A stretch of DNA of 53,257 nt from an uncultured Gammaproteobacteria bacterium. GTDB lineage: Bacteria > Cyanobacteriota > Vampirovibrionia > LMEP-6097. The stretch is from contig CAYPGT010000002.1 of NCBI GenBank assembly GCA_964410425.1, forward strand, positions 1-53,257, given 5' to 3'. Shown in pieces: positions 11,488 to 30,700 of this stretch. Below the pieces are notes generated by a model, which had not been told where the DNA came from, did no database searches, and was given only the letters and a program-made list of their open reading frames with translations. The position numbers and the translations under genes are program-made. Every line of letters begins with the position of its first letter. Position 1 is the stretch's first letter.

Positions 11488-11850
11488 ATGCCTGCAGATA
11501 AAGACACCTTAGTAACAGCTAAAACTCAAAATACAGAATCAGCAGATTTTCAATTCCTCGCAACTTTAGATGAATTAGAACCTCACGGACAATTAAGTCG
11601 CTGGGTGAATGATCATGATATTTTACTTTATAAACATGAAGGTGAACTTAAAGCTATCAGTAATATTTGTCCACACTTTGGTGGACCAGTCGGCTATCGC
11701 AAGGCGAAGGATGGAATATTTACTTGTCTTTGGCATAATTGGCAATTCTCCTGTGCAGATGGTTCTTGTAAGACCAATCCAGGATTGAGTTTAAGGCAGT
11801 ATCAATTAAGAGTTGAGGGTAATAAAGTTTACGTAAACTTATTAGGGTAA
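11488..11850 (+). CDS. Rieske [2Fe-2S] domain protein
   Basis: 120 aa with CPHFGGPV ... CLWHNWQF (C-x-H ... C-x2-H Rieske ligands). Confidence 0.85.
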   Translation: MPADKDTLVTAKTQNTESADFQFLATLDELEPHGQLSRWVNDHDILLYKHEGELKAISNICPHFGGPVGYRKAKDGIFTCLWHNWQFSCADGSCKTNPGLSLRQYQLRVEGNKVYVNLLG

Positions 11851-11854
11851 AGTC

Positions 11855-12544
11855 ATGGTGAAAAATAAAAGTAACAAGGTTAAATTAACTCTGGAGCTAG
11901 AACTAGAGCAAGACTGCCCCAAGGAAGTAATAATGTGGAACTATTATGACCATGAACACTTACTGGGCACTCACCAAAAGCTTTACAGAGAAGCTCGTAT
12001 CTTAGCAGAAAGAGATGATTGGGCGTTGGTTTATAGAAGAGCTAAAATTCCTGTAGTACCTTTCGAGAATGAGGGAATTGGTTTTCAGTATATGCCTGAG
12101 CCTCATATTATGAGGACAGTTCATAGAGATATCTGGGGCATGTTAGACATGGAAGTTCACTTCTTTGATCTTCCTAACAACAGATCAAGAATGAAGATTT
12201 ATTACAATATGCATGTTCCTAGATGGATGGGATTTCTTCAACCAGCATTCAGGATAGTGTTTAGTTCATGGCTCAAAAACGCATGGGCAGAGGATGTACC
12301 AATGAGAAACAGACGCTGGAAAGTTCATACCTTGGGCTTCAAGGATTTTCATGGTATTGATTGGATTAACAAGAAACAAACTAAGCCTGTAGACCTCAAT
12401 CCTGGTCCTTATATTTTCGAACCACCAGTACCTTCTCTACCTGTTATTAAAAATGAAGGGATGTTCAGACCTGATGTAAGCGAAATAGTGCTACCCAATA
12501 AAGAATATAATGTTGACTATACAGCAGGAGTAGCAAATCATTGA
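11855..12544 (+). CDS. hypothetical protein; candidate non-heme iron catalytic partner of the Rieske protein
   Basis: 229 aa starting 4 nt after the Rieske ORF stop, in a different frame. YDHEHLLGTH (nt 11948-11974) fits the D-x2-H-x4-H mononuclear iron motif of Rieske oxygenase catalytic domains. Confidence 0.4.
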   Translation: MVKNKSNKVKLTLELELEQDCPKEVIMWNYYDHEHLLGTHQKLYREARILAERDDWALVYRRAKIPVVPFENEGIGFQYMPEPHIMRTVHRDIWGMLDMEVHFFDLPNNRSRMKIYYNMHVPRWMGFLQPAFRIVFSSWLKNAWAEDVPMRNRRWKVHTLGFKDFHGIDWINKKQTKPVDLNPGPYIFEPPVPSLPVIKNEGMFRPDVSEIVLPNKEYNVDYTAGVANH

Positions 12545-13437
12545 GTTGTATTGTATGTAATTCAGATAGTGAGTTACCTTTATTTACCGGACTAAAAGAC
12601 TGGGAGTACGAAACCTGTGGTCCAATTGATTTTTACAAATGTACCTGCTGTGGTCTGATATCACAAAAGCCCTTACCTAAGCTAGATCTAGTCCCAAAGT
12701 TTTATCCTGCTAACTATCGCAACTACTTAGCTATAGGCTCGGGCATATTCTCACAGTTAAAAAAAATAAAATTCCGCAAGCAAGCACAGGACCTTAGTAA
12801 GTTTTTCACTAAGAGTTCTAAAATTCTTGAAATCGGCTATGGTAACGGCGAGCTACTAGTAGCATTAAAAGATTTAGGATATGATAATTTATATGGTTGC
12901 GATTTCAGCAGTGCTGCCTCTGAAAAGCTCTCAAACAAAGGCATTCAAGTTCAAGTAGCTAACGTTGAAAAAGAAATCCCATTTAACAAAGAGTTCGATA
13001 TCATTCTTCTCAACAATGTTATAGAACATTTCTTAGATCCAGCAGCCGTAATGAAGAACTGCTACTCCAAGCTTAAACCTGGAGGACTGTTACTCTTATT
13101 CACACCTAACTCTAAAGCAATTGAACTTTCTATATTTGGGAAATATTGGGCTGGGCTCCATGTCCCAAGACATATACATTTATTCAATCAACAAAATCTA
13201 CAGCTGATGTCTAAGAAAAGTGGCTTCTCTTCTATAAAATTTCATGCAGATCTAGATCCTGCTCAGTGGGCGATATCCATACAGAACTATCTTCAAGACA
13301 CTAAACTATTTCACACTAAATTAGAGAACGGCATGTCATTCTATATGGTTCCCTTAAGCTTGATGTTTATTCCAGTCGCAATCCTACAAAGACTTACAGG
13401 AAACAGTACAGGGATTCTGGCAGTCTTAAAAAAATAA
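12541..13437 (+). CDS. class I SAM-dependent methyltransferase with N-terminal Cys4 zinc-ribbon
   Basis: 298 aa. CIVC ... CTCC pairs at the N-terminus, ILEIGYGNGELL motif I, NNVIEHFLDP. TTG start as given by the ORF track; overlaps the preceding ORF by 4 nt. Confidence 0.78.
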   Translation: MSCIVCNSDSELPLFTGLKDWEYETCGPIDFYKCTCCGLISQKPLPKLDLVPKFYPANYRNYLAIGSGIFSQLKKIKFRKQAQDLSKFFTKSSKILEIGYGNGELLVALKDLGYDNLYGCDFSSAASEKLSNKGIQVQVANVEKEIPFNKEFDIILLNNVIEHFLDPAAVMKNCYSKLKPGGLLLLFTPNSKAIELSIFGKYWAGLHVPRHIHLFNQQNLQLMSKKSGFSSIKFHADLDPAQWAISIQNYLQDTKLFHTKLENGMSFYMVPLSLMFIPVAILQRLTGNSTGILAVLKK

Positions 13438-13452
13438 GTTATAATCACAGTA

Positions 13453-15708
13453 ATGTTGATTACTTTAATCCTAATTAAATTCGCTATTTTACTTTTAGTT
13501 TTAAGCTTAATCGGCAAAGCTCTCTATCAAAAACTTACTAGTCAAACTGAAAATATATTAGCCAATAGCTACAAGCTTACGCGCTATGCAAGTTACCTAA
13601 TAATAGGTCTAGGGTTTGCCTTAGTCACATCACATCTACTGTCATTTATCACTCAAAGCTACAGAAGCAGTTTGAATATTCTTCTGCCTGTCTTCTTAGT
13701 TGTAGCAGGGATTCCCTGTGTTAATTTCTTCAAAAATAAAGACCGTAATTGGCTTGAGTTAATTAAATTTAGCAAGGTTGAATTATTTCTTTTAGCGCTA
13801 CTGGGTTATCTAGGCTATATCTACATTCAAGTAGATGCTTTTACTTTCGGTTCTTGGGATAAGATTCATCATTGCTATGTTGCTTCAATCATGGAGAATA
13901 ATTTCTATCCTCCAGCAGAACCTACTGACATAAGCCAAAAGATGGACTATTACCATTATGGTGTTGACCTTATAGCTGGAGCATTTAGTCATTATTTAGG
14001 CATAGAACTCTGGTACGCTTACGCATTACAACTAGCCTTGTTTGTTTGCATATTAATAGTATTCTTATTCTCAACCATAAGCCTTTTCATTCCCAGTGCA
14101 GCACTTGCAGCATTCTTAACCATATTCACTTTCTTTTTCTCAACACTGAATAATCTAGAGTTCTTATTGCGCTATAGCACTATATTTGCTGGTTATCCTC
14201 TCGACTTAGCAAAATTCTTCGATGTCTTCAAAGCTATGTCTGCTCTATCAGCCAAGAATTTAAGCGTGCGCATGCTTTTCTACTCTCCGAATATGGGGTT
14301 TGCGATGTCATTTACTAGCTTATTCTTCTTAGTAAAATTCCTCAAACTAGATGAACTAAAGAACTATATTAAGTATCTAATTATCGTCTTCTGCTCATTC
14401 TTACTATATTTCGGTGAACCTTCAATGTGGTATCCGTTTTTTGGGGCATTAGCTATATACTCAACAATTAAATTTCTCTATAACTTCAAACCTTTAGGCA
14501 TTGAAGCATCTATAAAAGCAAGTAAACTAAGTCTCTGCTATATCGCCTCGATGTTCTTAGGTAAACTCATCTGCATGAACAGGCATATCTCAGACTTCAA
14601 CGGTATTAATCTATTTAGCTTTCATCCATCTCTTAATTTAAACATTCCTATTAGCTGGGGCTCTATATATCAGCGATTATTTATCGATGAAATTCTTAAA
14701 CACTATAAGATCATACATCACCATTTCAATTATTTTGAAGCTCCTTTGTTCTCAGAGATTGGTTTTCGAGAGATTGGCATATTTGTTCTTCTAGGTTTCA
14801 TAGCATTATTATTAAATTTATTTATCAAGAAACAGAGTTTTCCAGTAGCTTTTATTTTCCTAGTAGCATTCTTGGGATTTCTCGTTCCTTTCTTTTTTGA
14901 GTACTCAATCAGACCAGAAGAAGACCTAAGATTCATAATCTTCAGCAAACCATTTTTCACTTTAGCTGCTACTTTAGGATTCTTCATGCTCAGCAGGAAT
15001 TTCAACAACTTCTTCTCAAGTTGGGAATTAATTATCATTGCCTTAATGATCTTAAACATAGCTCCAACTTTTTACACAGTGGTTACAGGTGAAGCTCCTC
15101 ATCAGGGTCACCTAGTCGTCACTCCTGAACAAAGCAAATTCGTTAAAGAATTTCGCAAGTATCATAAGTCTGGCGAAACCTGCTTAGATGACTCTATGTA
15201 TATAGGCTGGGCAGGTAACTCTACCTTGGCAGGCTGCTATGGGTTGGGTTATAAGCTCTATAGAGAAAACAAGAATACTCGAGAGACGGCTTTAGCCACC
15301 ATGAATCCTTTCTTACTTAAAGAGCTTAACGTTGATTATATTGTCATCAGCGATTACGACAAACTCTCTGCAGAAGCGAAACAGCGACTTGGCGATCCAA
15401 AGCTCTTCAGTGAAATGAAGATAGATGATAGCCTTAATTGGCATATCTATAAATTCAATAAGAACTTTAATACAGCTGATAATATAAAACTCGCTGATGA
15501 ATATATCTGGGCTGTTACCATGGTAGATATTGATGGAGGAACTCTTATGGTTGAAGATACAGAGCACCATTATTATATGTCCAAAGACCGTAAGCTTCTT
15601 CTAGATGAACTCGCGAAGATCAAGGATATAATTAAGGATCAAAGTGTAGAGTTTGTTGTTTGGGGTTCAGTGGAAGCTTTTAAGACAGCTGATTTCGCTA
15701 AGAAGTGA
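13453..15708 (+). CDS. large polytopic membrane protein, GT-C-like candidate; paralogue of 43521-45722
   Basis: 751 aa, many hydrophobic segments plus a soluble C-terminal ~200 aa. Shares YHYG(V/T)DLI and NP(F/L)LLKEL(N/H)V.Y ... AKQRL(G/D)(D/N)PKLF with the 733-aa protein. Confidence 0.5.
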   Translation: MLITLILIKFAILLLVLSLIGKALYQKLTSQTENILANSYKLTRYASYLIIGLGFALVTSHLLSFITQSYRSSLNILLPVFLVVAGIPCVNFFKNKDRNWLELIKFSKVELFLLALLGYLGYIYIQVDAFTFGSWDKIHHCYVASIMENNFYPPAEPTDISQKMDYYHYGVDLIAGAFSHYLGIELWYAYALQLALFVCILIVFLFSTISLFIPSAALAAFLTIFTFFFSTLNNLEFLLRYSTIFAGYPLDLAKFFDVFKAMSALSAKNLSVRMLFYSPNMGFAMSFTSLFFLVKFLKLDELKNYIKYLIIVFCSFLLYFGEPSMWYPFFGALAIYSTIKFLYNFKPLGIEASIKASKLSLCYIASMFLGKLICMNRHISDFNGINLFSFHPSLNLNIPISWGSIYQRLFIDEILKHYKIIHHHFNYFEAPLFSEIGFREIGIFVLLGFIALLLNLFIKKQSFPVAFIFLVAFLGFLVPFFFEYSIRPEEDLRFIIFSKPFFTLAATLGFFMLSRNFNNFFSSWELIIIALMILNIAPTFYTVVTGEAPHQGHLVVTPEQSKFVKEFRKYHKSGETCLDDSMYIGWAGNSTLAGCYGLGYKLYRENKNTRETALATMNPFLLKELNVDYIVISDYDKLSAEAKQRLGDPKLFSEMKIDDSLNWHIYKFNKNFNTADNIKLADEYIWAVTMVDIDGGTLMVEDTEHHYYMSKDRKLLLDELAKIKDIIKDQSVEFVVWGSVEAFKTADFAKK

Positions 15709-15731
15709 TCTCCTCATAGTAATTCAATAAA

Positions 15732-15862
15732 GTTTTGGCAATTTGTAACTGTCTTTTCTCCGTTCAGGTCAAAAGATCGGGTATTTGTGTAATTGCAGAT
15801 TCCCTCCCTTGAAGATCTGGTTGACCTGAAACTTCGAAAATCCAGTTACAAATTGCCAAAAC
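15732..15862. repeat. 131-nt long inverted-repeat element (MITE-like or structured RNA) between convergent genes
   Basis: Perfect 20-nt arms: gttttggcaatttgtaactg (15732-15751) and cagttacaaattgccaaaac (15843-15862). Inner perfect 10-nt arms: ttcaggtcaa (15763-15772) and ttgacctgaa (15821-15830). Further agatc/gatct pairing inside. Confidence 0.65.
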
Positions 15863-15893
15863 TAAAATCATGAAACTTTCGGAGGAATACTAT

Positions 15894-15934
15894 AGGCGCG
15901 TAACCACAACCAAATGAGATTTAGATTAATAATT
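15894..15934. repeat. ~40-nt intergenic repeat, copy 1 (second copy at 20308-20354)
   Basis: aggcgcgtaaccacaaccaaatgagatttagattaataatt shares the blocks aggcgcgtaacca, aac, agatttagat and taataatt with 20308-20354. It abuts or overlaps the stop of the minus-strand gene 15926-17515. Confidence 0.55.
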
Positions 15935-17515
15935 GATTTGACGAGATAGACTTTTAGCTAACATATCCTTCCCTAAGTAATACAGTAAATGACAATATGG
16001 GTAGTGATGTAAGGCAGCGATATTTAAGTAGATCAAAGCTGTCATCACTTGAACTTTCCTGTAGTCATAACCCTTAGACTCAAGATAGCTTTGAAAGAAC
16101 CTTTCACACTCCACTAATATCTGCTTACGATGCAGGTCATAGCTGATTTCATTGGCGTTAATTTTAGTCTCATATAAATCCTTCGCTATCAATTCATGAC
16201 AAACAATAAGTCCGTGATTAAGCTTTCCTAAGTCGTAATAGACATCACCATATTCAATTACTCCACCAAAGTTTTGTCTCCAATCAAGAAAAGTAAACTC
16301 ATGCGTATTTTTGTTGTACAAAATATTCTCAAAATGAAAATCACCATGAAAGTTACCTGGCAAGCCATTTGTAACCCAGTCCCAATCTAGGCTATCGAGT
16401 AGAGCCTTAGTACTTGGGCGTTCTAAACCATTGATCATCTCTTCTTTATCAGTATTGCCAAAGACTTTATAATACTGTTCTACACGCTGGAAAGTTTTAA
16501 TCTTATAAAAATCAACACAAGTATCTTTGAAACGCTTCTGTTCTTCTGGGCTTAGGGTCTTAGGCTTAGCAGGACTCGAATCCCAAAACTTCTGAGAATA
16601 ATCTAGTAATTCCTTAAATATTTTAAGATCAATAATTTTAGAAAGTACTTCACCTTGAACTTCTTGGTAGCAGTACATATGCTCTGTAGCTCCAGTAATG
16701 GGAGGCACAAAATCGCCCAAGACCTGAGTACGTTTAACTCTATCAGAAATAAACTTGTCATCAGTATTAAACTTAATTACCTTATCATTAACAAACCAAA
16801 TTGCTTCAGTGGGTTTCTCCAGTATATTTGGACCTTCTGGGTCATGGAATTGACTACGCACCTTATTCAAAGCTTCAAGATTGCCAGTGTCATGCCAACT
16901 AAACTTAGATGCGGTAATATTTTTCAGCTCTCTTAATCCATAGCTCTCACCAAGCAAGATAGCCTCAGCTCCACCTGCTTCCATGGCTTGCCAAAAGCTC
17001 TTATAATCATAAATTCCAGCTAGTCCAATATAAGGATAAATATTATTTGCCTTAGTCCCTTTCTCTAATATTTTTAAGACTATATTAGCTTCTACTTGAA
17101 CAGTACGATATTGATCTATTGAGCCTTCGACTTGAGCGTAGCCCATCCAATTATGATCAGGCTCTGCTATCCTCTCATCAACAATGGTGTCACAAGAACA
17201 AAAAATAAAAGGACATTGTAAATATTCCTTACAACTCAGCACCGTCAAACCCAGTCCAGATCCCTCACCCTCAAATGGACTAACTTCTACAAACTCAAAC
17301 TTACGCTCAGGATATGCGAGTTCTAAATATTCTCTAACTAAGTTTCCCTTATAACCCAAAGCAATAACCATAGGAACTTCTTGAGGAAATTTTTCTATAA
17401 TATATGAAATACTAGGCTTATTAGCAATAGCAACTAGCGACTTATTTACGTTCTTAGTCAGATCAGCCAAGCGTGATCCAGTACCAGCAGTTGGAATTAA
17501 TACTTTATAGATCAA
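15926..17515 (-). CDS. bifunctional sugar-phosphate nucleotidyltransferase / APH-fold (choline/anomeric-sugar kinase-like) kinase
   Basis: 529 aa. N-terminal LIPTAGTGSRL (G-x-G-T-R-L nucleotidyltransferase signature). C-terminal FHGDFHFENILY (H-x-D-x4-N kinase motif) followed by FLDW. Confidence 0.78.
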   Translation of the reverse strand: MIYKVLIPTAGTGSRLADLTKNVNKSLVAIANKPSISYIIEKFPQEVPMVIALGYKGNLVREYLELAYPERKFEFVEVSPFEGEGSGLGLTVLSCKEYLQCPFIFCSCDTIVDERIAEPDHNWMGYAQVEGSIDQYRTVQVEANIVLKILEKGTKANNIYPYIGLAGIYDYKSFWQAMEAGGAEAILLGESYGLRELKNITASKFSWHDTGNLEALNKVRSQFHDPEGPNILEKPTEAIWFVNDKVIKFNTDDKFISDRVKRTQVLGDFVPPITGATEHMYCYQEVQGEVLSKIIDLKIFKELLDYSQKFWDSSPAKPKTLSPEEQKRFKDTCVDFYKIKTFQRVEQYYKVFGNTDKEEMINGLERPSTKALLDSLDWDWVTNGLPGNFHGDFHFENILYNKNTHEFTFLDWRQNFGGVIEYGDVYYDLGKLNHGLIVCHELIAKDLYETKINANEISYDLHRKQILVECERFFQSYLESKGYDYRKVQVMTALIYLNIAALHHYPYCHLLYYLGKDMLAKSLSRQINY

Positions 17516-17859
17516 TTTCTTTTATAGTCGTCAACCAGACGCACTACATCATCCATTTCTGGTGTAGAGGCTTCAAGATAGACAGCATCTCCCAACTCAG
17601 CTTCCATTCTATGCACTACGCCAGGGCTAATAGTCACAGATTCACCAGGATGAAACTGTTGCTTAGCGAGAGTTTCAACACTATTACCAATATAAATATT
17701 TAGGATTCCTTCAAGCACATAAATAGTTTCCTTCTTATGATTATGATATTGAATACTGCATCTATGCCCCTTATGCATAGTAAGCTTTTTCATCATGTAC
17801 TTGTCATTGATTTCTACTACTTCTTCTTTGCCCCAGGGCTTGTCTATTGTTTGTAACAT
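17512..17859 (-). CDS. cupin domain protein, type II phosphomannose-isomerase-like
   Basis: 115 aa. KPWGKEEVV ... KKLTMHKGHRCSIQYHNHKKETIYVLEG matches the PMI-type cupin pattern. 4-nt overlap with the downstream gene. Confidence 0.75.
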   Translation of the reverse strand: MLQTIDKPWGKEEVVEINDKYMMKKLTMHKGHRCSIQYHNHKKETIYVLEGILNIYIGNSVETLAKQQFHPGESVTISPGVVHRMEAELGDAVYLEASTPEMDDVVRLVDDYKRN

Positions 17860-17918
17860 AATTATATTATTTATCCTATATTTCTATTGAGAATCCTTCC
17901 AAACATCAAAATAGAAAT

Positions 17919-17955
17919 GGGTTCCGCCTCTCCGCGGCGGTTGCGCTGCGCGCGA
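17919..17955. repeat. GC-rich hairpin-forming intergenic element, copy 2
   Basis: gggttccgcctctccgcggcggttgcgctgcgcgcga is near-identical in its core to 20242-20279. ccgcc/ggcgg and gcgc/gcgc self-complementary blocks. Confidence 0.65.
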
Positions 17956-18054
17956 CATAATAAAAAATTATTTAGCAGCCCATGAGACACAGCCGTGTCG
18001 TAGACACATATTATAGTAAAAATGAAAATTAAATTGATTGAGTAAGTGAACATA

Positions 18055-18885
18055 TTAAGTAATTTTATACTCCGCTAACTCTGGATAGTGCTCAAAAAAC
18101 TTATCATAAAAATTCTTAGAATACATCTGTAATAACCAGCGACTATTAAATCCATATTTATTACGCATCCAGCTCTTACCTTCTTGAAGCAGCTTCTGAA
18201 TATTTATATCATAACTATCCGTCATCATTATTCCAGCCTTAGTTTTCAAGTAAGATTCATTCTCTGCCTGCCAAGCTCTTGGAGTGATACCGCAAGCCCA
18301 GTCATTGGCATAAGCCTTCGCAATAAGCTCTAAGTCAACTCCATAACCTCTGAAATTAGCTCCATCGAACATGAAGTTAATATGGCTTGAGTTTTCCATT
18401 GGTATGATATCTTCGATAAATTCTCTTCTAATAAACCAAGAAAGGAATTGTGTGTACCAAAAATACTTGACTTCTTTAGTATCTCTTATAAGTATCTTCT
18501 CTCCCCATTGTTCTGAGCATGGAGACAGAATGCCAAGTCGAGGATGTTTATTCATCTCTTCTTCCAAAATTTCAACTACATTAGGTGTAGAGAACTCTAT
18601 ATCATTACAAACCAAGAAAAAATAATCATACTGCTTAAACTTACTATCTTCATAGAGTTTATGTAAGCCATAGTTAAAGCCTCTTGGATAACGCAATCCT
18701 TCCTCTATCGCTTCCGGCCAGTCAGCATGCCAGGTACAATATTTAGATAGAGAATCTTTATTAGAGCCACTTTCTACTACGTAGACATCAGTAAACTCAG
18801 AATTATATTTCTCTAAATTCTCACAGAGCTTATTAGTAACATCTGGTAAATTTCTATTAAGAACTATAGTGGCAGTTCTTTTCAT
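18055..18885 (-). CDS. glycosyltransferase family 2-like protein
   Basis: 276 aa. IVLNRNLPDVT ... VYVVESGSNKD and RGFNYGL resemble the GT2 N-terminal region and acceptor loop. Confidence 0.55.
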   Translation of the reverse strand: MKRTATIVLNRNLPDVTNKLCENLEKYNSEFTDVYVVESGSNKDSLSKYCTWHADWPEAIEEGLRYPRGFNYGLHKLYEDSKFKQYDYFFLVCNDIEFSTPNVVEILEEEMNKHPRLGILSPCSEQWGEKILIRDTKEVKYFWYTQFLSWFIRREFIEDIIPMENSSHINFMFDGANFRGYGVDLELIAKAYANDWACGITPRAWQAENESYLKTKAGIMMTDSYDINIQKLLQEGKSWMRNKYGFNSRWLLQMYSKNFYDKFFEHYPELAEYKIT

Positions 18886-20129
18886 ATAGCTTTCTCCTGA
18901 GCTTTTTTATTTAAGATGAGCATCTCATTATCCAAACTATATTTAGAGATATCTAGAAGTCTAAACGCCTTGAGATAGCGCATAATACTTAGCTTCACTC
19001 TATCCTTTAAATATTGATCGATCTCTATATCCTTGGTAAATTTTTGTGCTTCTTTTTTAATCTCTTGGAACTCTGGTTTAGCAAAAACATAATGACCAGC
19101 AATAATAGCCCGTTCACGCTTGCCAGCATTAGTATTAGGCAACATCCACTTATCCCATTTATTAGAGTTGTAAGCCAGGTTAATAAATCTATCTGCAAGT
19201 TCTGGTAACTTGTGATCTTCCAAAAGTTTCAAGAAAGCTCTCGTCTCTTCTACACCAAACTCAGGCGCAACATTAGCAGCATGGATACCAAACTTGGGAT
19301 GCCAGCTCAAAGCCTCATCAGAAAGGTAATCAGTATTATGCTCCTTCATAAATATATTGTACTTATTACAAAGTTCTATCATTTGCGGCACTTGAATCTC
19401 TGCAGGCAGTTCACCAATGATTCTCAGCGGCCAATCAAAAGTACCGACGTTCTTAGTCTCCATTACTTTAGTACCAGTTTGTATAACTATAAAAGTAGGT
19501 TTTTGAATTTTACTCTTATCGCAAAAACTCAACACATTCTGCAAAACATATTCAAGCTGCTCGCGAGTGTTAGTACCACCACTCTGCTCTTCAGTACCTA
19601 TCTCGAAAGCTATATCCTTACTAGCTTTCTGTGCAACGCTAGTACAAAATTCCAGTAACTCATAAACTCTATCTAGTATCTGATCAGTGCTAGAGGTACC
19701 AAAAATATCTTCGCTCGGATCTATATGTATAACTTCAAACCCTGACAGAATATCAGCTTCATAAGATTTCTTCGCAGATTCCATCGCTCGCTTCAGACTC
19801 AGCTTCTGCTCTTTCTCAATAGTGTTCTGCCATGGTCCACCGTGGTCGCGAGCCAGAATAATAAATCCCTTCTTATCCTGATCAATAACATAGCGAGAGT
19901 ATTCTTCTGTAGTCCAATTATTAACGTAACCACCACCAAAAGCTTCAGAGTCAATCTGACGGCGAGAAGCTATAAGCATAAGTGGTACTTGATGATCATT
20001 AGCAAGCTCTATGCTGGCATCAACACAATTCTTACTCATCGGACCCACACCTAATAAAGTGCAGCGTCTCTTCTTCATTAAATTTTCTAAGCGGTCTTTT
20101 ATCATCGCAGACCTTATTATTCTACCCAA
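18882..20129 (-). CDS. GatZ/KbaZ-family protein (class II tagatose-bisphosphate aldolase accessory / sugar-phosphate epimerase family)
   Basis: 415 aa. LLGVGPMSKNCVDASIELANDHQVPLMLIASRRQID fits the family N-terminus. The track start at 20129 is TTG; the in-frame ATG at 20105 (MIKDRLENL) is an equally plausible start. Confidence 0.7.
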   Translation of the reverse strand: MGRIIRSAMIKDRLENLMKKRRCTLLGVGPMSKNCVDASIELANDHQVPLMLIASRRQIDSEAFGGGYVNNWTTEEYSRYVIDQDKKGFIILARDHGGPWQNTIEKEQKLSLKRAMESAKKSYEADILSGFEVIHIDPSEDIFGTSSTDQILDRVYELLEFCTSVAQKASKDIAFEIGTEEQSGGTNTREQLEYVLQNVLSFCDKSKIQKPTFIVIQTGTKVMETKNVGTFDWPLRIIGELPAEIQVPQMIELCNKYNIFMKEHNTDYLSDEALSWHPKFGIHAANVAPEFGVEETRAFLKLLEDHKLPELADRFINLAYNSNKWDKWMLPNTNAGKRERAIIAGHYVFAKPEFQEIKKEAQKFTKDIEIDQYLKDRVKLSIMRYLKAFRLLDISKYSLDNEMLILNKKAQEKAI

Positions 20130-20241
20130 TATTAGGATAATATTTGAAATACATATTATCCTGAGGATTAATTAAACTTGTAACTACTCACCTCCTTGAT
20201 ATAATATTTTCTTTTTAATCCTTAAATCTAGGATGGGATCT

Positions 20242-20279
20242 GGGTTCCGCCGCTTCGCGGCGTTTGCGCTGCGCGCGGC
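20242..20279. repeat. GC-rich hairpin-forming intergenic element, copy 3
   Basis: gggttccgccgcttcgcggcgtttgcgctgcgcgcggc. cgccgc-ttc-gcggcg forms a perfect 6-bp GC stem, followed by a gcgc-tgc-gcgc block. Confidence 0.65.
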
Positions 20280-20307
20280 TTAATATAGTAAATTATTAGC
20301 CGTTCGA

Positions 20308-20354
20308 AGGCGCGTAACCATAACATAAAATAAGATTTAGATAGATTAATAATT
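20308..20354. repeat. ~40-nt intergenic repeat, copy 2
   Basis: aggcgcgtaaccataacataaaataagatttagatagattaataatt; see 15894-15934. Lies about 20 nt downstream of the stop of the minus-strand HAD gene. Confidence 0.55.
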
Positions 20355-20372
20355 ATTTGGTCGGCTGAGTAG

Positions 20373-20870
20373 TTACTTCTTTAACTCCAAAATTTTATCA
20401 GGGTTATAAGCACCGAAAAACTTCTCTAAAATATGGCGGCAAGCTTCCGAGACCGCTCTATCGCCTCCAGCCCGCTTGCAGACATAGTCAGCATGCTCAG
20501 CTGTGTAAGCATCAGAAGCTGCCGGGGCAATGCTATAGCCGACCTCACGAAATACCATATAGTCAAAGATCCCGTCACCCATATATATAACTTCTTCTGG
20601 CTTGTATCGTTCCTTAATCCAGTCAATACGATTAAAAGTACTAACAAGATCAAGAGGATACTTCATATCCTCTTCCACACGTTTCTTAGTAACAGAGAAA
20701 CCTCTCTTATCCCCGCTGACAAAACGAATCTCAAGTAAATCTTCGACTAGCGTCAGAGCATCATTGTCATCCGCGCCAAACTCCTTCATCACCTTACCGT
20801 GCTCACTATAAAAAAATCTTCCTGTGTTGAGAACTCCGTCGACATCTAGAATAAAGACCTTGGGCTGCAT
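20373..20870 (-). CDS. HAD-IIIA phosphatase, KdsC-like (phospho-sugar phosphatase)
   Basis: Start set to the internal ATG at 20870 (MQPKVFILDVDGVLNTG...), giving a 165-aa KdsC-size protein with DVDGVL, SGDKR and YMGDGIFD motifs. The longer track ORF (to 21044) overlaps the divergent GT2 gene. Confidence 0.78.
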   Translation of the reverse strand: MQPKVFILDVDGVLNTGRFFYSEHGKVMKEFGADDNDALTLVEDLLEIRFVSGDKRGFSVTKKRVEEDMKYPLDLVSTFNRIDWIKERYKPEEVIYMGDGIFDYMVFREVGYSIAPAASDAYTAEHADYVCKRAGGDRAVSEACRHILEKFFGAYNPDKILELKK

Positions 20871-20901: not shown

Positions 20902-21717
20902 ATGGCTGACCGACCAAAGCTAATGTTATTTATCCCCATGTATAACTGCGAAAAGCAGATTCCACGCGTTCTTAGTAAGTTCAGCGAAGAAATACAGAAG
21001 CTTTTTACTGAGATCATAATAATTGATAATGGTAGTAAAGACAAAAGCTTAGATGCTGCTCAAACTGGATTAGAAAAACTAAACTACGTTAAAACTACAT
21101 TACTACAAAATTGTGACAATTATAATTTAGGTGGTTCTCATAAAGTAGCTTTTAATTACGCATTAGAGCAAGGCTATGATTACGTCGCAGTGCTGCATGG
21201 CGACGACCAGGGTGAGGTAAGCGATTTTGTACCACATCTGATCAGTGCTGAATACCAAACTTATGACTCCTTCTTAGGCTCAAGATTCCACAAAGATTCT
21301 AAGCTAATTCATTACCCTGCATTTAGAGCTTGGGGTAATATCGGGCTCAATTTATTATGCTCAATAATCACTGGCTATTGGATTACAGACATGGGAGCAG
21401 GTTTGAACATATATAGTACAAGCTACCTAAAAAATAAATTTTACTTATACTTTCCAAACAATCTTACTTTCAATGTATTCATGTTGTTCTATGGTTGCCA
21501 TGTGAGATCTCGATTCAAGTTCTTCCCTTTAGTTTGGAAGGAAGAAGATCAAATCAGCAACGCGAAAGTATTTCAGCAGGGCTTTAGAATACTTTATTTA
21601 CTCCTAGAGTATCTTTTCACACGCAAGCAACTCTTCTCTGGCACTGAAAATGAGTGGTCTCAAATTGATTATCAGTCTAAGACTATATTTAGTAGCAACC
21701 CACAAGCAAGCTTATAG
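20902..21717 (+). CDS. glycosyltransferase family 2
   Basis: 271 aa. LFIPMYNCEKQIPRVL ... IIIIDNGSKDKS ... VLHGDDQ (GT2 DxD-type region). Confidence 0.82.
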   Translation: MADRPKLMLFIPMYNCEKQIPRVLSKFSEEIQKLFTEIIIIDNGSKDKSLDAAQTGLEKLNYVKTTLLQNCDNYNLGGSHKVAFNYALEQGYDYVAVLHGDDQGEVSDFVPHLISAEYQTYDSFLGSRFHKDSKLIHYPAFRAWGNIGLNLLCSIITGYWITDMGAGLNIYSTSYLKNKFYLYFPNNLTFNVFMLFYGCHVRSRFKFFPLVWKEEDQISNAKVFQQGFRILYLLLEYLFTRKQLFSGTENEWSQIDYQSKTIFSSNPQASL

Positions 21718-22944
21718 AAATATAGCTGGCACTTGATATATATTTTCAGAGATCTGCTCAATCTCATCACCGTTGTTTATGACTATCCCATAAGGGCAAG
21801 CTTGCTCTTCAATAAAGCTAGTCATGGCTCTTAACTGATCACTCTTAGTAAAACTTCCAGATTTAATTTCGATAGGAATAATACCAAACTTACCTTCTAT
21901 AATGAAATCAATTTCAGCTTGATGATGAGTTCGATAGAAATAGTAGTCAGCTTTTATAAATAAGGATTCAAGATTTTTTATAAGCTGTTCAATCACAAAA
22001 GCTTCCCAAATATTACCAAAACTTGGATGAGCGATCAAATCTTCCACGCTATTAATGTTCAACAGAAAATTTATAATATTGGTATTCCTTATATAGCCCT
22101 TCGGCATTTTCACTAGTCGCTTCTTAGTATTTTTAGAATAACAAAGAAGCTTTCTCCAAATGAAAGTACCTTCTGCTATATCAAGGTAGCTTTTTATAGT
22201 TGGCTGAGACACATCTAAAGAGCTTGCAAAGTTAGATGCCTTGAATAAGTCTCCAGAAGAGAAACATAGCATTTTAATAAATCTTCGATATGCGTCAATA
22301 TTAAGTTGGGGAAACAAAGCTCTTATATCTCTTTCAATATAGGACTTAATATAGTTCTCTTGCCAAAGCTGGTATTTCAGAGAATCTTTACGTTCTAAAA
22401 AAGGTTCTGGATATAAACCATTTAAGCAAAGCTCATACAATTCAGGTCGCGTATAAATAGGTTTGAGTTTCTTGAACGATTCTGGAGAATTAAGATTCTC
22501 ATAAAGTTTAGATTGTTTTTTCTGTAACGCTTCATTCCAACTAAAAGTGGGGACTTCAATCATAGCTATCCTTCCAGCTAAAGATTCACTTATACCTTTA
22601 ATTAAATGAGGAGAGCTCGAACCACTGATCAAGAATTGACCATTTTGTTTTCTATTCTTGTCAATCTGCACTCTCAGAGCAGAAAATAATTCTGGATACA
22701 GTTGCGCTTCATCAAAAACAAGGGGACCTTTATTCTCCTTAAATATCAAATCCAATCTACCTGGATCAGTGATTCTTTCATAATCTGGGGCGTGTTCAAG
22801 ATCAAAAAATTTAGCTTTAGGCAATACTCTCTTTAGCAAGGTAGATTTACCAACCTGCCTAGCGCCCAGAAGCGCTACGCAGGGGAATTTATCGAGTAAG
22901 GTTTTAACAGACTTCTCAAGCTCTCTTTTTATAATAGCGGACAT
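21712..22944 (-). CDS. AAA-type ATPase with DUF4143-like C-terminal domain
   Basis: 410 aa. Walker A LLGARQVGKSTL, Walker B-like LVFDEAQ. Overall layout matches the widespread ATP-binding protein family carrying DUF4143. Confidence 0.8.
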   Translation of the reverse strand: MSAIIKRELEKSVKTLLDKFPCVALLGARQVGKSTLLKRVLPKAKFFDLEHAPDYERITDPGRLDLIFKENKGPLVFDEAQLYPELFSALRVQIDKNRKQNGQFLISGSSSPHLIKGISESLAGRIAMIEVPTFSWNEALQKKQSKLYENLNSPESFKKLKPIYTRPELYELCLNGLYPEPFLERKDSLKYQLWQENYIKSYIERDIRALFPQLNIDAYRRFIKMLCFSSGDLFKASNFASSLDVSQPTIKSYLDIAEGTFIWRKLLCYSKNTKKRLVKMPKGYIRNTNIINFLLNINSVEDLIAHPSFGNIWEAFVIEQLIKNLESLFIKADYYFYRTHHQAEIDFIIEGKFGIIPIEIKSGSFTKSDQLRAMTSFIEEQACPYGIVINNGDEIEQISENIYQVPAIFL

Positions 22945-27714: not shown

Positions 27715-30700
27715 ATGAGGGGAAATTTTTTCCACCAAAATTTTCTAAAGAAGCTAAATAGACTGCTTGTCAATCTGTTCTTGTTAGCTATTTTTCTTTT
27801 TCAGCAATCGTATGTTAACTTGTTAATGCTCAAAGCTGAGGCTGCAGAGCCGATACCTACTGGGATTGACTTCAATGCTGTGATCAAAAGTAGAGATGAT
27901 AATCTGGCCAACGGTAAATCAAAAATAAAATTCTCTATTCAACAAAGCGTAATTCAAGATCTCGGAGACCAGAAATTTACGGCCTTTCTTTTCTTTGGAG
28001 ATGATTTCTATAAGAATTATCAATACTTTACAGGTAAATACTCAGATTTCAAAGAGCTTGAGCATGAATATACTAAACATGGTAGCTATAAACCCCTATT
28101 AATAGTGTATTCAGAAACTCTTAAGAGTAGAGTATTTAAGTTTCTAGATCCTATCATCGTTGAACAGAAGGATGCCTATAAGCCTATCGCTCAAGGTGCA
28201 ACAGTTCTCAAGACCCACGATGCCATAGCTAATACTGTCACCGTCAAGTTTAGTGGACTGGGAAGTTTTGATCCACAGGCTACTGGCAGCACTAATCTAA
28301 CCTATTATTGGGATTTTGGAGATAGTGGTTCTACCAATACTAAGAACCTAGAGATTAGTCACACATATAAATCAGCTGGAAGCTTTTCTCCGACACTAAT
28401 TGTAGAAACCATAGATGGTCGCCGTAGTGATAAATATGAATTACCATCGATCACAATTGATGAAAACACCATAATCGACTATAACAAACGATCATTTGCC
28501 GCTGATATCATTCCAACAATTCTATCTAAAATAAATCAAGCTCCATTATTAGATGCAAAGGTTGCAATTGGATTTAAAACTATTAATGAAAACTTGAAGC
28601 TAAGCACTAAGAAATTTACAGTATTTGTATTCTATGGTGATAATTTCTATCGATCATATGAACAATTCACTAATAAATTTTCGGAGTTCCCCAGCATCAC
28701 TCATATTTATAAGGAACCTGGTAGCTATAAACCATTAGTTATAGCCTATTCAAGTGACTTACAAGATAGGTTGTTTAAATTCCTTGACCCTATACAAGTG
28801 ACTAAAGTTGGAAAGGATGTCTATCTTCCAATAGCTCAGGCAAGATTAATAGAGAGAGTAGATGATAGGAATGCTAATACTGTTACTGCAAATTTTTCTG
28901 CGGAAGGAAGTTTTGATCCGATAGATAATTCTAGTAATTCCTTAAATTATTTATGGGATTATGGCGATGGTAGTCAGTCGGAAATAACTAATCAGGATAT
29001 ATCTCACATATACAATGCTCCTGGTACTTTTAATCCTAGCCTTACTGTCAAAACGGCAGACGGCAGAACTAGTACTAAGTATGATCTTGAACCAATTATA
29101 ATCTCCAAGGAGGTTGTCTGTTTAGAGTCACGAGATTCATGGATTAATATAGGCGTTTGTCAAGCTGACTGTGGTGGTATTGCTGGCAATCAATTGCAGG
29201 CTAATTTATGTGATGAAGAAAGATATATAGAATGTGTAAGCCCTGAATGCCGGTCTAATTCATTTACAATACTGAATGATTATGTCGAAGCCGAGCAGTA
29301 TCTTTCTTTTGATGCAGACACCAGTGGCTTTGATGATGAAAGCAAAATAGCTTTTAGGTATATAATCAGCTCTGCTTCCGAGCAGACTCGTGAACAAATT
29401 TATAAACAGAGTAGGTTTTATATAGATGAAGCAGGATCATACTCGGTAACATTAGAAATATATGAGAATTCATTCAAAGCATCAACTTATACCCAAGTTA
29501 TAGAAGTTGCAGAAGCTAATAAGCCACCAGTAGCTAATGCTAGTGCAGATAAATATACAGGCGAGGAGAGCTTGCAAGTGAATTTTGATGCTTCAGCCTC
29601 ATATGATCCAGAAGGAAGGGAGTTAAGTTATGAATGGGACTTTGGCAATAATGAGCTAGTCAGTGGAGTTAAGGTGACTCGCAATTATACTGATCTAGGA
29701 ACATACAGAGTTAGCCTGAAGGTAACTGATGACAGGGGGCTTGCTTCTATAGTTAAATTAAATGATATAACAGTTACTGAGAAAAATTATCCTCCTAATG
29801 CTAATTTCGTGCAGAATGTATTTGACTGTAAGGTTGACGAACAAGGCAAGATAGCTCTAGAGCAAAAACTAGATGATAAATTCTTCTGCAGTATAGAGCT
29901 TGATGGCTTATTAAGCTCCGATCCTAATGGCAATATAAGTAATTACACTTGGTCAGTATCATTTTATAATCCAGTAACAGAACAAACAGAAAACTTGATT
30001 TTGGATAAACCTAATAGCCCTAAATTTACATCTAAGTTCGATAAATTTGGAATTTATAATACTCAGCTGACAGTTACAGATGCTGGTGGACTATCAGACA
30101 TCCACTCTTCTCAGTTTGAAATACTGGAACCTAGTCCAGTGCTGAAAGCTGAAGTTCAAGATAGAGTAAATGATTTAGAGAATAGTAGCTCCACTCTAAC
30201 CTTTAGTGCTAATGGATCAATTTATTATCAGAATAAGCCTGAGTTCAATCCTGGTGCAGCAATACTAGACTATATTTGGGACTTTGGAGATGGGTCCAAT
30301 GGACAAGGATTAGTGACAGTACATCAATATACTAAGGCAGGAGTCTATTCTCCAATACTTAGAGTCAATATAAAGACTGACGAGAATAAAACTGTACTCG
30401 CGAGAAAGAATCTAGAATCAATTGTTGTTACAGGAGTGTTACCGGTAGTAGGCTCTCTTAGCTTCAGTAACTTACAAGCAATAGAAAACGAGGAAAGCTC
30501 AATTGACGCAGTCACATTTGGTTCTATCAGTAGAGAACAATATAAGTGGATTTATCGTGCTTATGAGAAAGATACTAACGGTAAAACCATACTGGCAGAT
30601 AGATCTAGTGAGTTTAATGAAGCATATGGTGAAGTAGCTTCAAGTATTCTTGATGCCCCGCAGAGCTTTACAGAAGCTGGTCAATATCAGCTAGTGCACC

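Follow-up and report, generated by a model that had tools for sequence, protein, structure and literature searches.

The DNA analyzed here, referred to as the window, is a stretch of 53,257 nucleotides from an uncultured bacterium (contig CAYPGT010000002.1 of GenBank assembly GCA_964410425.1, positions 1 to 53,257). Our subject is a cassette of five intact open reading frames (ORFs) on the minus strand between positions 15926 and 20870. The encoded proteins are a KdsC/YrbI-like HAD phosphatase of 165 amino acids (20373-20870; start codon ATG at 20870, giving MQPKVFILDVDGV), a GatZ/KbaZ-like protein of 407 amino acids with a class II aldolase fold (18882-20105; ATG at 20105, alternative TTG start at 20129), a soluble GT-A fold protein of 276 amino acids (18055-18885), a type II phosphomannose isomerase (PMI)-like cupin of 115 amino acids (17512-17859), and a fusion protein of 529 amino acids with a TTG start (15926-17515). 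The latter combines an N-terminal nucleotidyltransferase domain of ~225 residues with a C-terminal APH-fold kinase domain of ~300 residues. The gene for the 276-residue protein starts within the stop region of the GatZ-like gene, with an overlap of 4 nt (ATGA), and the cupin stop overlaps the fusion start, again by 4 nt (TTGA). A preliminary description of the window, made from the sequence alone, had proposed a string of five products at these positions, and the ORFs bear it out. Its domain calls for the HAD phosphatase, the GatZ/KbaZ-like protein, the PMI cupin, and the nucleotidyltransferase joined to a kinase are backed by Pfam and NCBIfam matches. We consider it fairly probable that the cassette encodes a mutase-free pathway to a nucleotide-activated rare aldose. 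The analysis shows the gene content, the conserved set, the folds, the catalytic residues that are conserved, and the modular variants; from these we infer the substrate, the product, the nucleotide, and the order of the steps.

The GatZ-like protein matches the Pfam family PF08013 (IPR012062) with 32.4 bits, above the gathering cut-off of 26.7. The match spans residues 21-189, corresponding to model positions 12-180 of 420, and thus covers the N-terminal part only. PF08013 was carried by all 120 homologues of the protein among the matches listed. Scores against the AgaZ/GatZ/KbaZ equivalogs TIGR02810 and NF012002 amounted to 27.5 and 28.5 bits, respectively. As these values are far under the cut-offs of 569 and 707, true GatZ membership was rejected. 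While a single-sequence search of the PDB sequences gave nothing useful, an AlphaFold2 model (pLDDT 91) was informative in a Foldseek comparison. The top matches were 3txv and 2fiq (E 1.5e-15, TM-scores of 0.71-0.76, 16% identity), with class II aldolases and tagatose 4-epimerases in the next ranks, and the model displays the GatZ fold, a class II aldolase-type TIM barrel with a C-terminal helical extension. For E. coli GatZ and KbaZ, a study from 2025 demonstrated the C4 epimerization of fructose-6-phosphate to tagatose-6-phosphate and proposed, based on modelling, a catalytic Asp87, the zinc ligands His88, Glu171, and His257, and the family-specific residues Glu44 and Lys279 (PMC11907403). 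In a profile alignment to 2fiq, residues D87, H88, E172, and H256 of the GatZ-like protein align with D87, H88, E171, and H257 of GatZ. Among 40 homologues, D87, H88, and H256 do not vary at all, and E172 hardly varies. The protein is predicted to be a metal-dependent ketose 6-phosphate epimerase, most likely acting on C4 and converting fructose-6-phosphate to tagatose-6-phosphate.

The cupin scored 46.6 bits against PF01050, the C-terminal cupin of PMI (cut-off 23.6), and matched the C-terminal region of TIGR01479 (GMP_PMI) with an E value of 1.2e-11. The metal motifs SIQYHNHKKE and PGVVHRMEA are present in its sequence. We predict that it interconverts a ketose 6-phosphate and an aldose 6-phosphate. 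A PMI cupin and a sugar-1-phosphate nucleotidyltransferase also share one pathway in the bifunctional enzymes AlgA, ManC, and XanB. The cassette differs from these in having two overlapping genes in the reverse order, and a kinase and a phosphatase in place of phosphomannomutase.

In the fusion protein, PF00483 covers residues 6-65, the NCBIfam nucleotidyltransferase models reach residue 170, and PF01636 (APH) covers residues 370-432. The nucleotidyltransferase motif had been given as G-x-G-T-R-L in the preliminary description; the actual letters are A-G-T-G-S-R-L. The H-x-D-x4-N motif named for the kinase fits H-G-D-F-H-F-E-N of the fusion. The kinase had been assigned to an APH/choline-kinase fold. 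It is of the APH type and not of the choline kinase type: PF01636 (APH) was found in 20 of 20 kinase domains of the family, and PF01633 (Choline_kinase) in none of the 20 at an E value of 1 or better. A profile of the kinase domain gave no match in the PDB. A search of the PDB sequences with the nucleotidyltransferase domain was led by the HddC-type heptose-1-phosphate guanylyltransferases 5xhw and 6jq8 (E ~2e-7). Against the NCBIfam equivalogs, the fusion scored 23.4 bits for HddC (cut-off 300) and 20.8 bits for MurU (NF045761, cut-off 250), and both identities were rejected because the scores lie under the cut-offs. No AmgK-type model matched. At least 1876 homologues with a length of 520-545 amino acids share 55-82% identity with the protein. 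The fusion is predicted to phosphorylate C1 of a sugar and then to form the NDP-sugar (NDP, nucleoside diphosphate).

The HddC-type matches bear on a heptose as the product. The GatZ-like protein would then act on sedoheptulose-7-phosphate, the cupin would deliver an unusual heptose-7-phosphate, and kinase, phosphatase, and nucleotidyltransferase would follow as in NDP-heptose synthesis. The NDP-heptose routes (GmhA, HddA or HldE, GmhB, HddC or HldE) consist of an isomerase, an anomeric kinase, a terminal phosphatase, and a nucleotidyltransferase. The step logic is thus the same as in GmhA/HddA/GmhB/HddC, and HldE is likewise a fusion of a kinase and a nucleotidyltransferase. The NCBIfam match to HddC is weak, however, and the components differ: the cassette kinase belongs to the APH fold rather than to GHMP or PfkB, the cupin resembles PMI and not GmhA, a SIS protein, the phosphatase is KdsC-like instead of GmhB-like, and an epimerase is added. 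Moreover, the known substrates of the GatZ family are hexulose 6-phosphates (PMC11907403). We regard the synthesis of an NDP-heptose as unlikely.

The annotation of the fusion family raises another explanation. JGI labels several homologues "choline kinase," and LicC (1jyk) is among the PDB matches of the nucleotidyltransferase domain (E 1.3e-5). A LicC-LicA fusion with the same domain order exists in Treponema. The fusion might accordingly be a LicC/LicA-type enzyme that activates choline or an amino alcohol as CDP-alcohol for glycan decoration, with the other genes as unrelated neighbors. However, sugar-1-phosphate nucleotidyltransferases outscore LicC, the partners that are conserved with the fusion across phyla are sugar-phosphate enzymes, and the junction of the cupin and fusion genes, a 4-nt overlap in the window, has a median of −4 nt in 68 related loci. 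As none of the 20 kinase domains matched Choline_kinase, LicA/LicC-type phosphocholine activation was rejected, and we hold it to be highly improbable. The preliminary description had itself named a LicA/LicC-type decoration, or some other described pathway, as what might account for the gene set. Neither is supported, as no cassette protein reached the equivalog cut-off of a known pathway.

The HAD protein scored about 68 bits against TIGR01670, the KdsC subfamily (cut-off 107), and 59.6 bits against NF007019 (cut-off 208). Because both scores are under the cut-offs, true KdsC identity was rejected. A profile of the family retrieved KdsC structures from the PDB with E values of ~1e-19 and Aquifex AQ2171 with 1e-25. 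All 20 homologues compared retain the motifs DVDG and GDGxxD unchanged, and the protein qualifies as a member of the C0-type YrbI subfamily. Genes for KdsA or KdsB do not occur within the cassette. We predict that the protein is a phosphatase for the terminal (C6) phosphate of a sugar 1,6-bisphosphate or of a sugar 6-phosphate.

The closest characterized system is the Afh route of phages. In phage HY126, AfhE is a single protein whose N-terminal part is a UDP-sugar pyrophosphorylase and whose C-terminal part is a kinase. It converts arabinofuranose-5-phosphate to the 1,5-bisphosphate and later forms UDP-arabinofuranose, with AfhF as the HAD phosphatase for the 5-phosphate and a SIS arabinose-5-phosphate isomerase feeding the route from ribulose-5-phosphate (PMC13326640). 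The route serves arabinosyl-5-hydroxycytosine phage DNA and is represented in HY126, RB69 (gp51-55), and DLP3 (gp81-83) (PMC13326640). An N-terminal pyrophosphorylase and a C-terminal APH-like kinase are described for AfhE, DLP3 gp82, and RB69 gp52:53 (PMC13326640), and the cassette fusion has the corresponding architecture. Both systems also share a HAD phosphatase and a ketose/aldose isomerase as partners and, in the pathway proposed for the cassette, a mutase-free sequence from the omega-phosphate via the 1,omega-bisphosphate and the 1-phosphate to the NDP-sugar. On the other hand, the similarity to the RB69 proteins is marginal. Comparing the fusion family with the gp52 kinase, hhalign gave a probability of 72% (E 3.4e-5), with the HGDxxFxN and DxRxxFG...YDxAK motifs aligned; the match to the gp53 nucleotidyltransferase was weak (41%). 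Furthermore, the cassette has a KdsC-type phosphatase instead of the GmhB-like AfhF and a cupin instead of a SIS isomerase, adds a GatZ-like epimerase and a GT-A protein, and belongs to a bacterial surface-glycan locus rather than to phage DNA modification.

Two further viral relatives of the fusion were recorded. The uncharacterized PLANC_62 of Enterococcus phage Planchet (locus L082, 4986-6617), annotated as "Glycosyltransferase," matched the fusion family over its full length with a probability of 99.5%. Its neighbors in this DNA-hypermodification locus are a thymidylate synthase/pyrimidine hydroxymethylase, a dUTPase, nucleotide kinases, and glycosyltransferases, and PLANC_62 probably makes an NDP-sugar for a glycosylated DNA base of this phage. 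A full-length homologue with 38% identity is encoded in MH319741.1 (16082-17551; Marine virus AG-345-E15), a marine single-cell record without annotation. A search of plasmids revealed only nucleotidyltransferase domains of Haloferax.

The 276-residue protein had been called GT2-like. None of the Pfam and NCBIfam models, including PF00535, matched it at an E value of 0.01 or better, and the PDB sequences gave no match with either the single sequence or a family profile. The call was upheld only at the level of structure, where a GT-A fold emerged from AlphaFold2 and Foldseek. The model (pLDDT 92) matched SpsA, WrtF, RmlT, and TarP with TM-scores of 0.5-0.57 and GnT-I as well, the overall TM-scores being 0.45-0.57 and all E values between 3e-7 and 1e-5. 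Invariant positions in the family are R11, N12, E38, N94-D95, and D174-G-x-N-F-R-G, and these residues fall at the nucleotide-sugar ligand sites of GT2 enzymes. In the region of the DxD motif, N94-D95 is invariant, and the third position (E97 in the window) is variable. No membrane segment was found in the protein. It is predicted to be a dedicated glycosyltransferase for the cassette sugar. Its homologues in other phyla are 49-76% identical. Because this identity is 49-55% in most phyla, with 76% in the closest relative (locus L002), the sequences suggest a conserved acceptor.

The distribution of the cassette was determined by an alignment-based scan with the fusion, using one genome per species, and by tblastn searches for the partner genes. 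The scan yielded 80 loci, in contrast to a single-protein scan of genome contigs, which gave no match. The cupin gene was present in 71 of the 80 loci, the HAD gene in 66, the GatZ-like gene in 60, and the gene for the 276-residue protein in 51. Their order is almost constant, and chance is a very poor explanation for such a gene set. Among the 80 loci, which represent more than 10 phyla, the order HAD, GatZ-like, GT-A, cupin, fusion recurs with identities of 46-85%, and the genes mostly overlap or nearly touch. Carriers include Melainabacteria (the closest, 67%), Gamma-, Beta-, and Alphaproteobacteria, Chlorobium, Synechococcus/Prochlorococcus, Campylobacter concisus, Arcobacter, Lachnospiraceae, Planctomycetes, Bacteroidota, Bdellovibrionota, Spirochaetota, Verrucomicrobiota, candidate phyla, and others. 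Cultivable carriers are, for example, Marinomonas colpomeniae, Aliiglaciecola lipolytica E3, Massilia sp. Root418, and Chlorobium ferrooxidans. The cassette forms a conserved unit and has spread horizontally. Related loci are flanked by genes for O-antigen or capsule synthesis, encoding aminotransferases, dehydratases, acetyltransferases, WbsX glycosyltransferases, ABC exporters, and UDP-glucose dehydrogenase.

About 50 loci carry a sixth gene, not found in the window, for an S-adenosylmethionine (SAM) methyltransferase of 380 amino acids, whose weak domain matches follow the layout of NDP-hexose C-methyltransferases. A methyltransferase of 298 amino acids encoded in the window was rejected as its orthologue, since the two share only 25% identity, and this over the generic SAM domain. 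In three loci (L007, 10808-11743; L009; L027), an aldose 1-epimerase (PF01263) follows the cassette-linked methyltransferase. The two accessory enzymes fit an aldose with a free anomer that is tailored later. Five loci (L002, 4132-4494; L004; L008; L034; L058) encode a SnoaL/NTF2-like protein of 120 amino acids within the cassette or next to it. In L002, its gene is located between those for the cupin and the fusion.

Eight loci combine the HAD and fusion genes with a ribulose-phosphate epimerase (RPE) paralogue of 235 amino acids and a SIS protein of 185 amino acids, instead of the GatZ-like protein and the cupin. A SIS protein is restricted to these eight loci. It scored 175.5 bits as a 6-phospho-3-hexuloisomerase, above the cut-off of 160, but not as KdsD. 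The pair was rejected as ordinary pentose-phosphate or ribulose monophosphate genes, because five of the six variant genomes searched contain an additional housekeeping rpe that scores higher and passes the cut-off, and none of the six contains HxlA (3-hexulose-6-phosphate synthase). The GatZ-like gene was absent from all four variant genomes searched for it, with the positive control detected in 6/6. A quick tree of the fusions places the RPE/SIS variants in two or more clades, with GatZ-type loci interspersed. Some loci of Gastranaerophilales are reduced to HAD, cupin, and fusion genes, or to cupin and fusion genes only, and a GatZ-like gene was found nowhere in their genomes. The fusion proteins of L045, which lacks the GatZ-like gene, and L048, which has it, are 87% identical. 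An optional GatZ-like gene is consistent with an upstream epimerase that affects nothing but the stereochemistry of the sugar. Since variant loci replace GatZ-like protein and cupin by RPE paralogue and SIS protein, or dispense with the GatZ-like protein, we read this as a fixed activation module of phosphatase and fusion, preceded by an exchangeable, modular slot for an epimerase and an isomerase.

The same variants, with their near-normal RPE paralogue and SIS isomerase, and the existence of epimerase-less loci with cupin and fusion speak for a pentose instead, as does the Afh route with its isomerase, HAD phosphatase, and the same kind of fused enzyme (PMC13326640). In this case, cupin or SIS protein would isomerize ribulose-5-phosphate to arabinose-5-phosphate, the epimerase would feed the pentulose pool, and the product would be an NDP-pentose such as NDP-D-arabinose. 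The phosphatase would suit this route: in the pathway to 3-deoxy-D-manno-oct-2-ulosonic acid (Kdo), the phosphate-bearing end of the natural KdsC substrate originates in arabinose-5-phosphate. Yet such a route leaves no task for the GatZ-like protein, which tblastn detected in three quarters of the loci (60/80). The cupin matches PMI rather than an arabinose-5-phosphate isomerase, the SIS protein is a 6-phospho-3-hexuloisomerase by its score and not KdsD, and the hhalign probability for RB69 gp52 is just 72%. An NDP-pentose thus appears improbable.

A further possibility is that the product is an NDP-ketose, for example NDP-tagatose, or a 3-hexulose, and that the cupin is not a 1,2-isomerase. 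GatZ-like protein plus cupin and SIS protein plus RPE paralogue would then perform the same two steps in two orders and arrive at one ketose phosphate. This would reconcile the equivalog-level score for 6-phospho-3-hexuloisomerase with the lack of specificity differences between the fusion types. Judging from the chemistry, 3-hexulose-6-phosphate would be a natural substrate of an RPE paralogue; its carbons 2-6 correspond to ribulose-5-phosphate. The similarity of the cupin is specifically to PMI, however, and some loci contain an aldose 1-epimerase. In addition, neither tagatose nor 3-hexulose is known to us in an NDP-activated form. We consider a ketose product very unlikely.

Returning to the rare aldose, we propose the following pathway. 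The GatZ-like protein would epimerize a central ketose 6-phosphate, probably fructose-6-phosphate to tagatose-6-phosphate, by retro-aldol/aldol inversion at C4. The PMI-type cupin would convert the resulting ketose 6-phosphate to the aldose 6-phosphate, which would be D-talose-6-phosphate if the stereochemistry at C2 is of the mannose type. The APH-fold kinase domain would then phosphorylate the anomeric C1 to yield the 1,6-bisphosphate, the KdsC-like phosphatase would strip off the 6-phosphate, and the N-terminal nucleotidyltransferase domain would form the NDP-sugar from the sugar-1-phosphate and a nucleoside triphosphate. Finally, the 276-residue GT-A protein would transfer the sugar, most likely to a conserved acceptor, and the neighboring GT2 and membrane glycosyltransferases would incorporate it into a surface glycan. 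Our best guess for the sugar itself is D-talose, and we offer it tentatively. Equally tentative is a more general version, an undescribed and very widespread family of modular, mutase-free pathways for hexose activation, in which the fixed back end turns any manno-type hexose 6-phosphate into an NDP-sugar, interchangeable front ends (GatZ-like protein plus cupin, RPE paralogue plus SIS isomerase, or cupin alone) set the stereochemistry, and the product in the window is NDP-D-talose.

As the main sub-alternative, the third and fourth steps may be reversed, so that the phosphatase acts first and the kinase uses the free sugar, as in MupP/AmgK/MurU. In the recycling of N-acetylmuramic acid by Pseudomonas, this trio of HAD phosphatase, APH-fold anomeric kinase, and uridylyltransferase converts a sugar 6-phosphate to a UDP-sugar (PMC5371407, PMC5371409). 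It differs from the cassette in that it consists of three separate proteins, places the phosphatase before the kinase, and salvages an amino sugar acid (PMC5371407, PMC5371409). By analogy, the back half of the cassette may work like the AfhE/AfhF, NDP-heptose, and MupP/AmgK/MurU routes, and we assign it to none of them. The GatZ-like protein would operate in a biosynthetic context, whereas GatZ and KbaZ belong to the catabolism of galactitol or N-acetylgalactosamine. A route to an NDP-activated rare hexose or ketose-derived sugar had already been suggested in the preliminary description, which also mentioned GatZ-family members that act as hexose-6-phosphate 4-epimerases. This idea gains support from the conservation of the cassette across phyla, from the GatZ fold and residues, and from the APH type of the kinase. 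Full-text searches of the literature found no description of the cassette. What is apparently new is the front end, attached to a known kind of mutase-free bisphosphate route to NDP-sugars, in a cassette that appears to be undescribed.

Several observations weigh against this pathway. The GatZ-like protein is only ~16% identical to GatZ, and in HMMER alignments to 2fiq and 3txv, Glu44 of GatZ is replaced by I45 and Lys279 by an invariant N278. In the GatZ model, Glu44 and Lys279 contact the hydroxyl group at C3 (PMC11907403). Because these two positions differ, the substrate or the stereochemical outcome of the reaction may not be the same as in GatZ. Taken together with the aligned catalytic residues, the replacements indicate, at the level of the alignments, that the metal-dependent retro-aldol epimerase machinery is kept and that the C3 pocket is altered. 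None of the five cassette proteins reached an NCBIfam equivalog cut-off of a named pathway. The preliminary description had matched the route to no described pathway, which has to be qualified, as the phage UDP-arabinofuranose route possesses the same kind of fused enzyme. The HAD family exhibits no specific similarity to RB69 gp51, the AfhF counterpart (hhalign 0.3%). In the window, the two repeat-bearing spacers within the cassette far exceed those of any related locus.

The variant loci add to these objections. Of 144 positions that are at least 90% conserved in GatZ-type fusions, none was consistently changed in the RPE/SIS-type clades. In cupin-only-type fusions, three of these positions differ, and GatZ-carrying relatives from Gastranaerophilales share the changes at least partly. 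A TylF-like O-methyltransferase occurs in one cassette of each type (GatZ and RPE/SIS), and the two proteins are 50% identical. If both front ends feed one sugar, a simple C4 epimerization of fructose-6-phosphate by the GatZ-like protein and a simple C3 epimerization by the RPE paralogue cannot both hold. Either the back end is blind to C3 and C4, or the reaction in one of the front ends is not the usual one of the enzyme's family.

The public names of the homologues are generic or misleading, such as "tagatose-6-phosphate kinase," "choline kinase," or "phosphotransferase." There are thousands of such homologues, in metagenomes and in genomes of more than 10 phyla, and reconstituting the pathway once would suffice to correct the annotation of them all. 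If the proposed pathway is true, it would provide an extra nucleotide sugar together with a mutase-independent way of making one, and it would be the first anabolic role for the GatZ family, that is, a function outside catabolism. The gain or loss of a single epimerase would offer bacteria a cheap means of varying their surface antigens. Bacterial glycan synthesis and DNA glycosylation by the phage route, which was described only recently, would also be linked, and a compact enzyme set would be available for converting fructose-6-phosphate to a rare NDP-sugar.

The two spacers within the cassette had been described as repeat-bearing, and each indeed contains a GC-rich repeat of 36-45 nt. The spacer between the HAD and GatZ-like genes (20130-20372, 243 nt) has a copy at 20241-20285, and that between the genes for the 276-residue protein and the cupin (17860-18054, 195 nt) has one at 17918-17962. 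The latter copy is overlain by an ORF of 60 amino acids (17871-18053) without a family match. Across the 2.04-Mb draft genome, the repeat (GCGCAGCGCAAnCGCCGCGnAGnGGCGGAACCC, 33-45 nt) has 24 copies, distributed over the two strands, compared with 0 in a reversed-pattern control, and it resembles a repetitive extragenic palindromic (REP)- or miniature inverted-repeat transposable element (MITE)-like element. A second repeat of ~45 nt is located after the HAD stop codon (20308-20354), in the first of the two spacers, and at 15894-15938, where it covers the final codons of the fusion gene together with the stop. In related loci, the same junctions are tight. The HAD and GatZ-like genes are separated by −4 nt at the median and by 77 nt at most (50 loci), and the genes for the 276-residue protein and the cupin have a median distance of 10 nt (46 loci). 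We conclude that the cassette copy in the window has been invaded by a small dispersed repeat. A scan of the spacers for promoters and terminators gave nothing above chance. The repeats folded no better than shuffled sequence and are not obvious terminators.

The cassette is part of a glycan island, as the window also encodes GT2 proteins, two PMT-type GT-C proteins, a DegT aminotransferase, a dehydratase, an RmlA-like protein, and a formyltransferase. Divergent from the cassette lies a gene for a GT2 glycosyltransferase of 271 amino acids (20902-21717, plus strand; PF00535, E 2e-12). Its best NCBIfam matches, all of them weak, are the polyprenyl-phosphate glycosyltransferases ArnC, PpgS, and PgfS. 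Homologues of this protein (cluster c17) adjoin the cassette in six other loci, and it may use the cassette NDP-sugar. On the other side, a convergent gene encodes a polytopic membrane protein of 751 amino acids (13453-15708, plus strand), which is strongly hydrophobic and has no Pfam match. In L002, the nearest relative, a homologue with 32% identity occupies the same position beside the cassette, and the protein is a candidate for a downstream enzyme of glycan assembly. Its gene is the last of a convergent operon (11488-15708, plus strand) that also encodes a Rieske [2Fe-2S] protein of 120 amino acids, a protein of 229 amino acids without a family, and the above-mentioned 298-residue SAM methyltransferase, which contains a zinc ribbon. 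The operon may represent a sugar-tailoring or glycan-modifying set acting on the cassette product.

In the gap between the convergent genes for the 751-residue protein and the fusion, an inverted repeat at 15731-15863 has arms of 28 nt that are 93% complementary and 77 nt apart. A terminator acting in both directions and a small mobile element are both conceivable. A gene for an AAA_14/DUF4143 ATPase with a weak NERD match (21712-22944, minus strand) is located between the GT2 gene and the two PMT-type genes and looks unrelated to glycans. Immediately downstream of the glycan genes, a single ORF on the plus strand (27715-40158) encodes a protein of 4147 amino acids.

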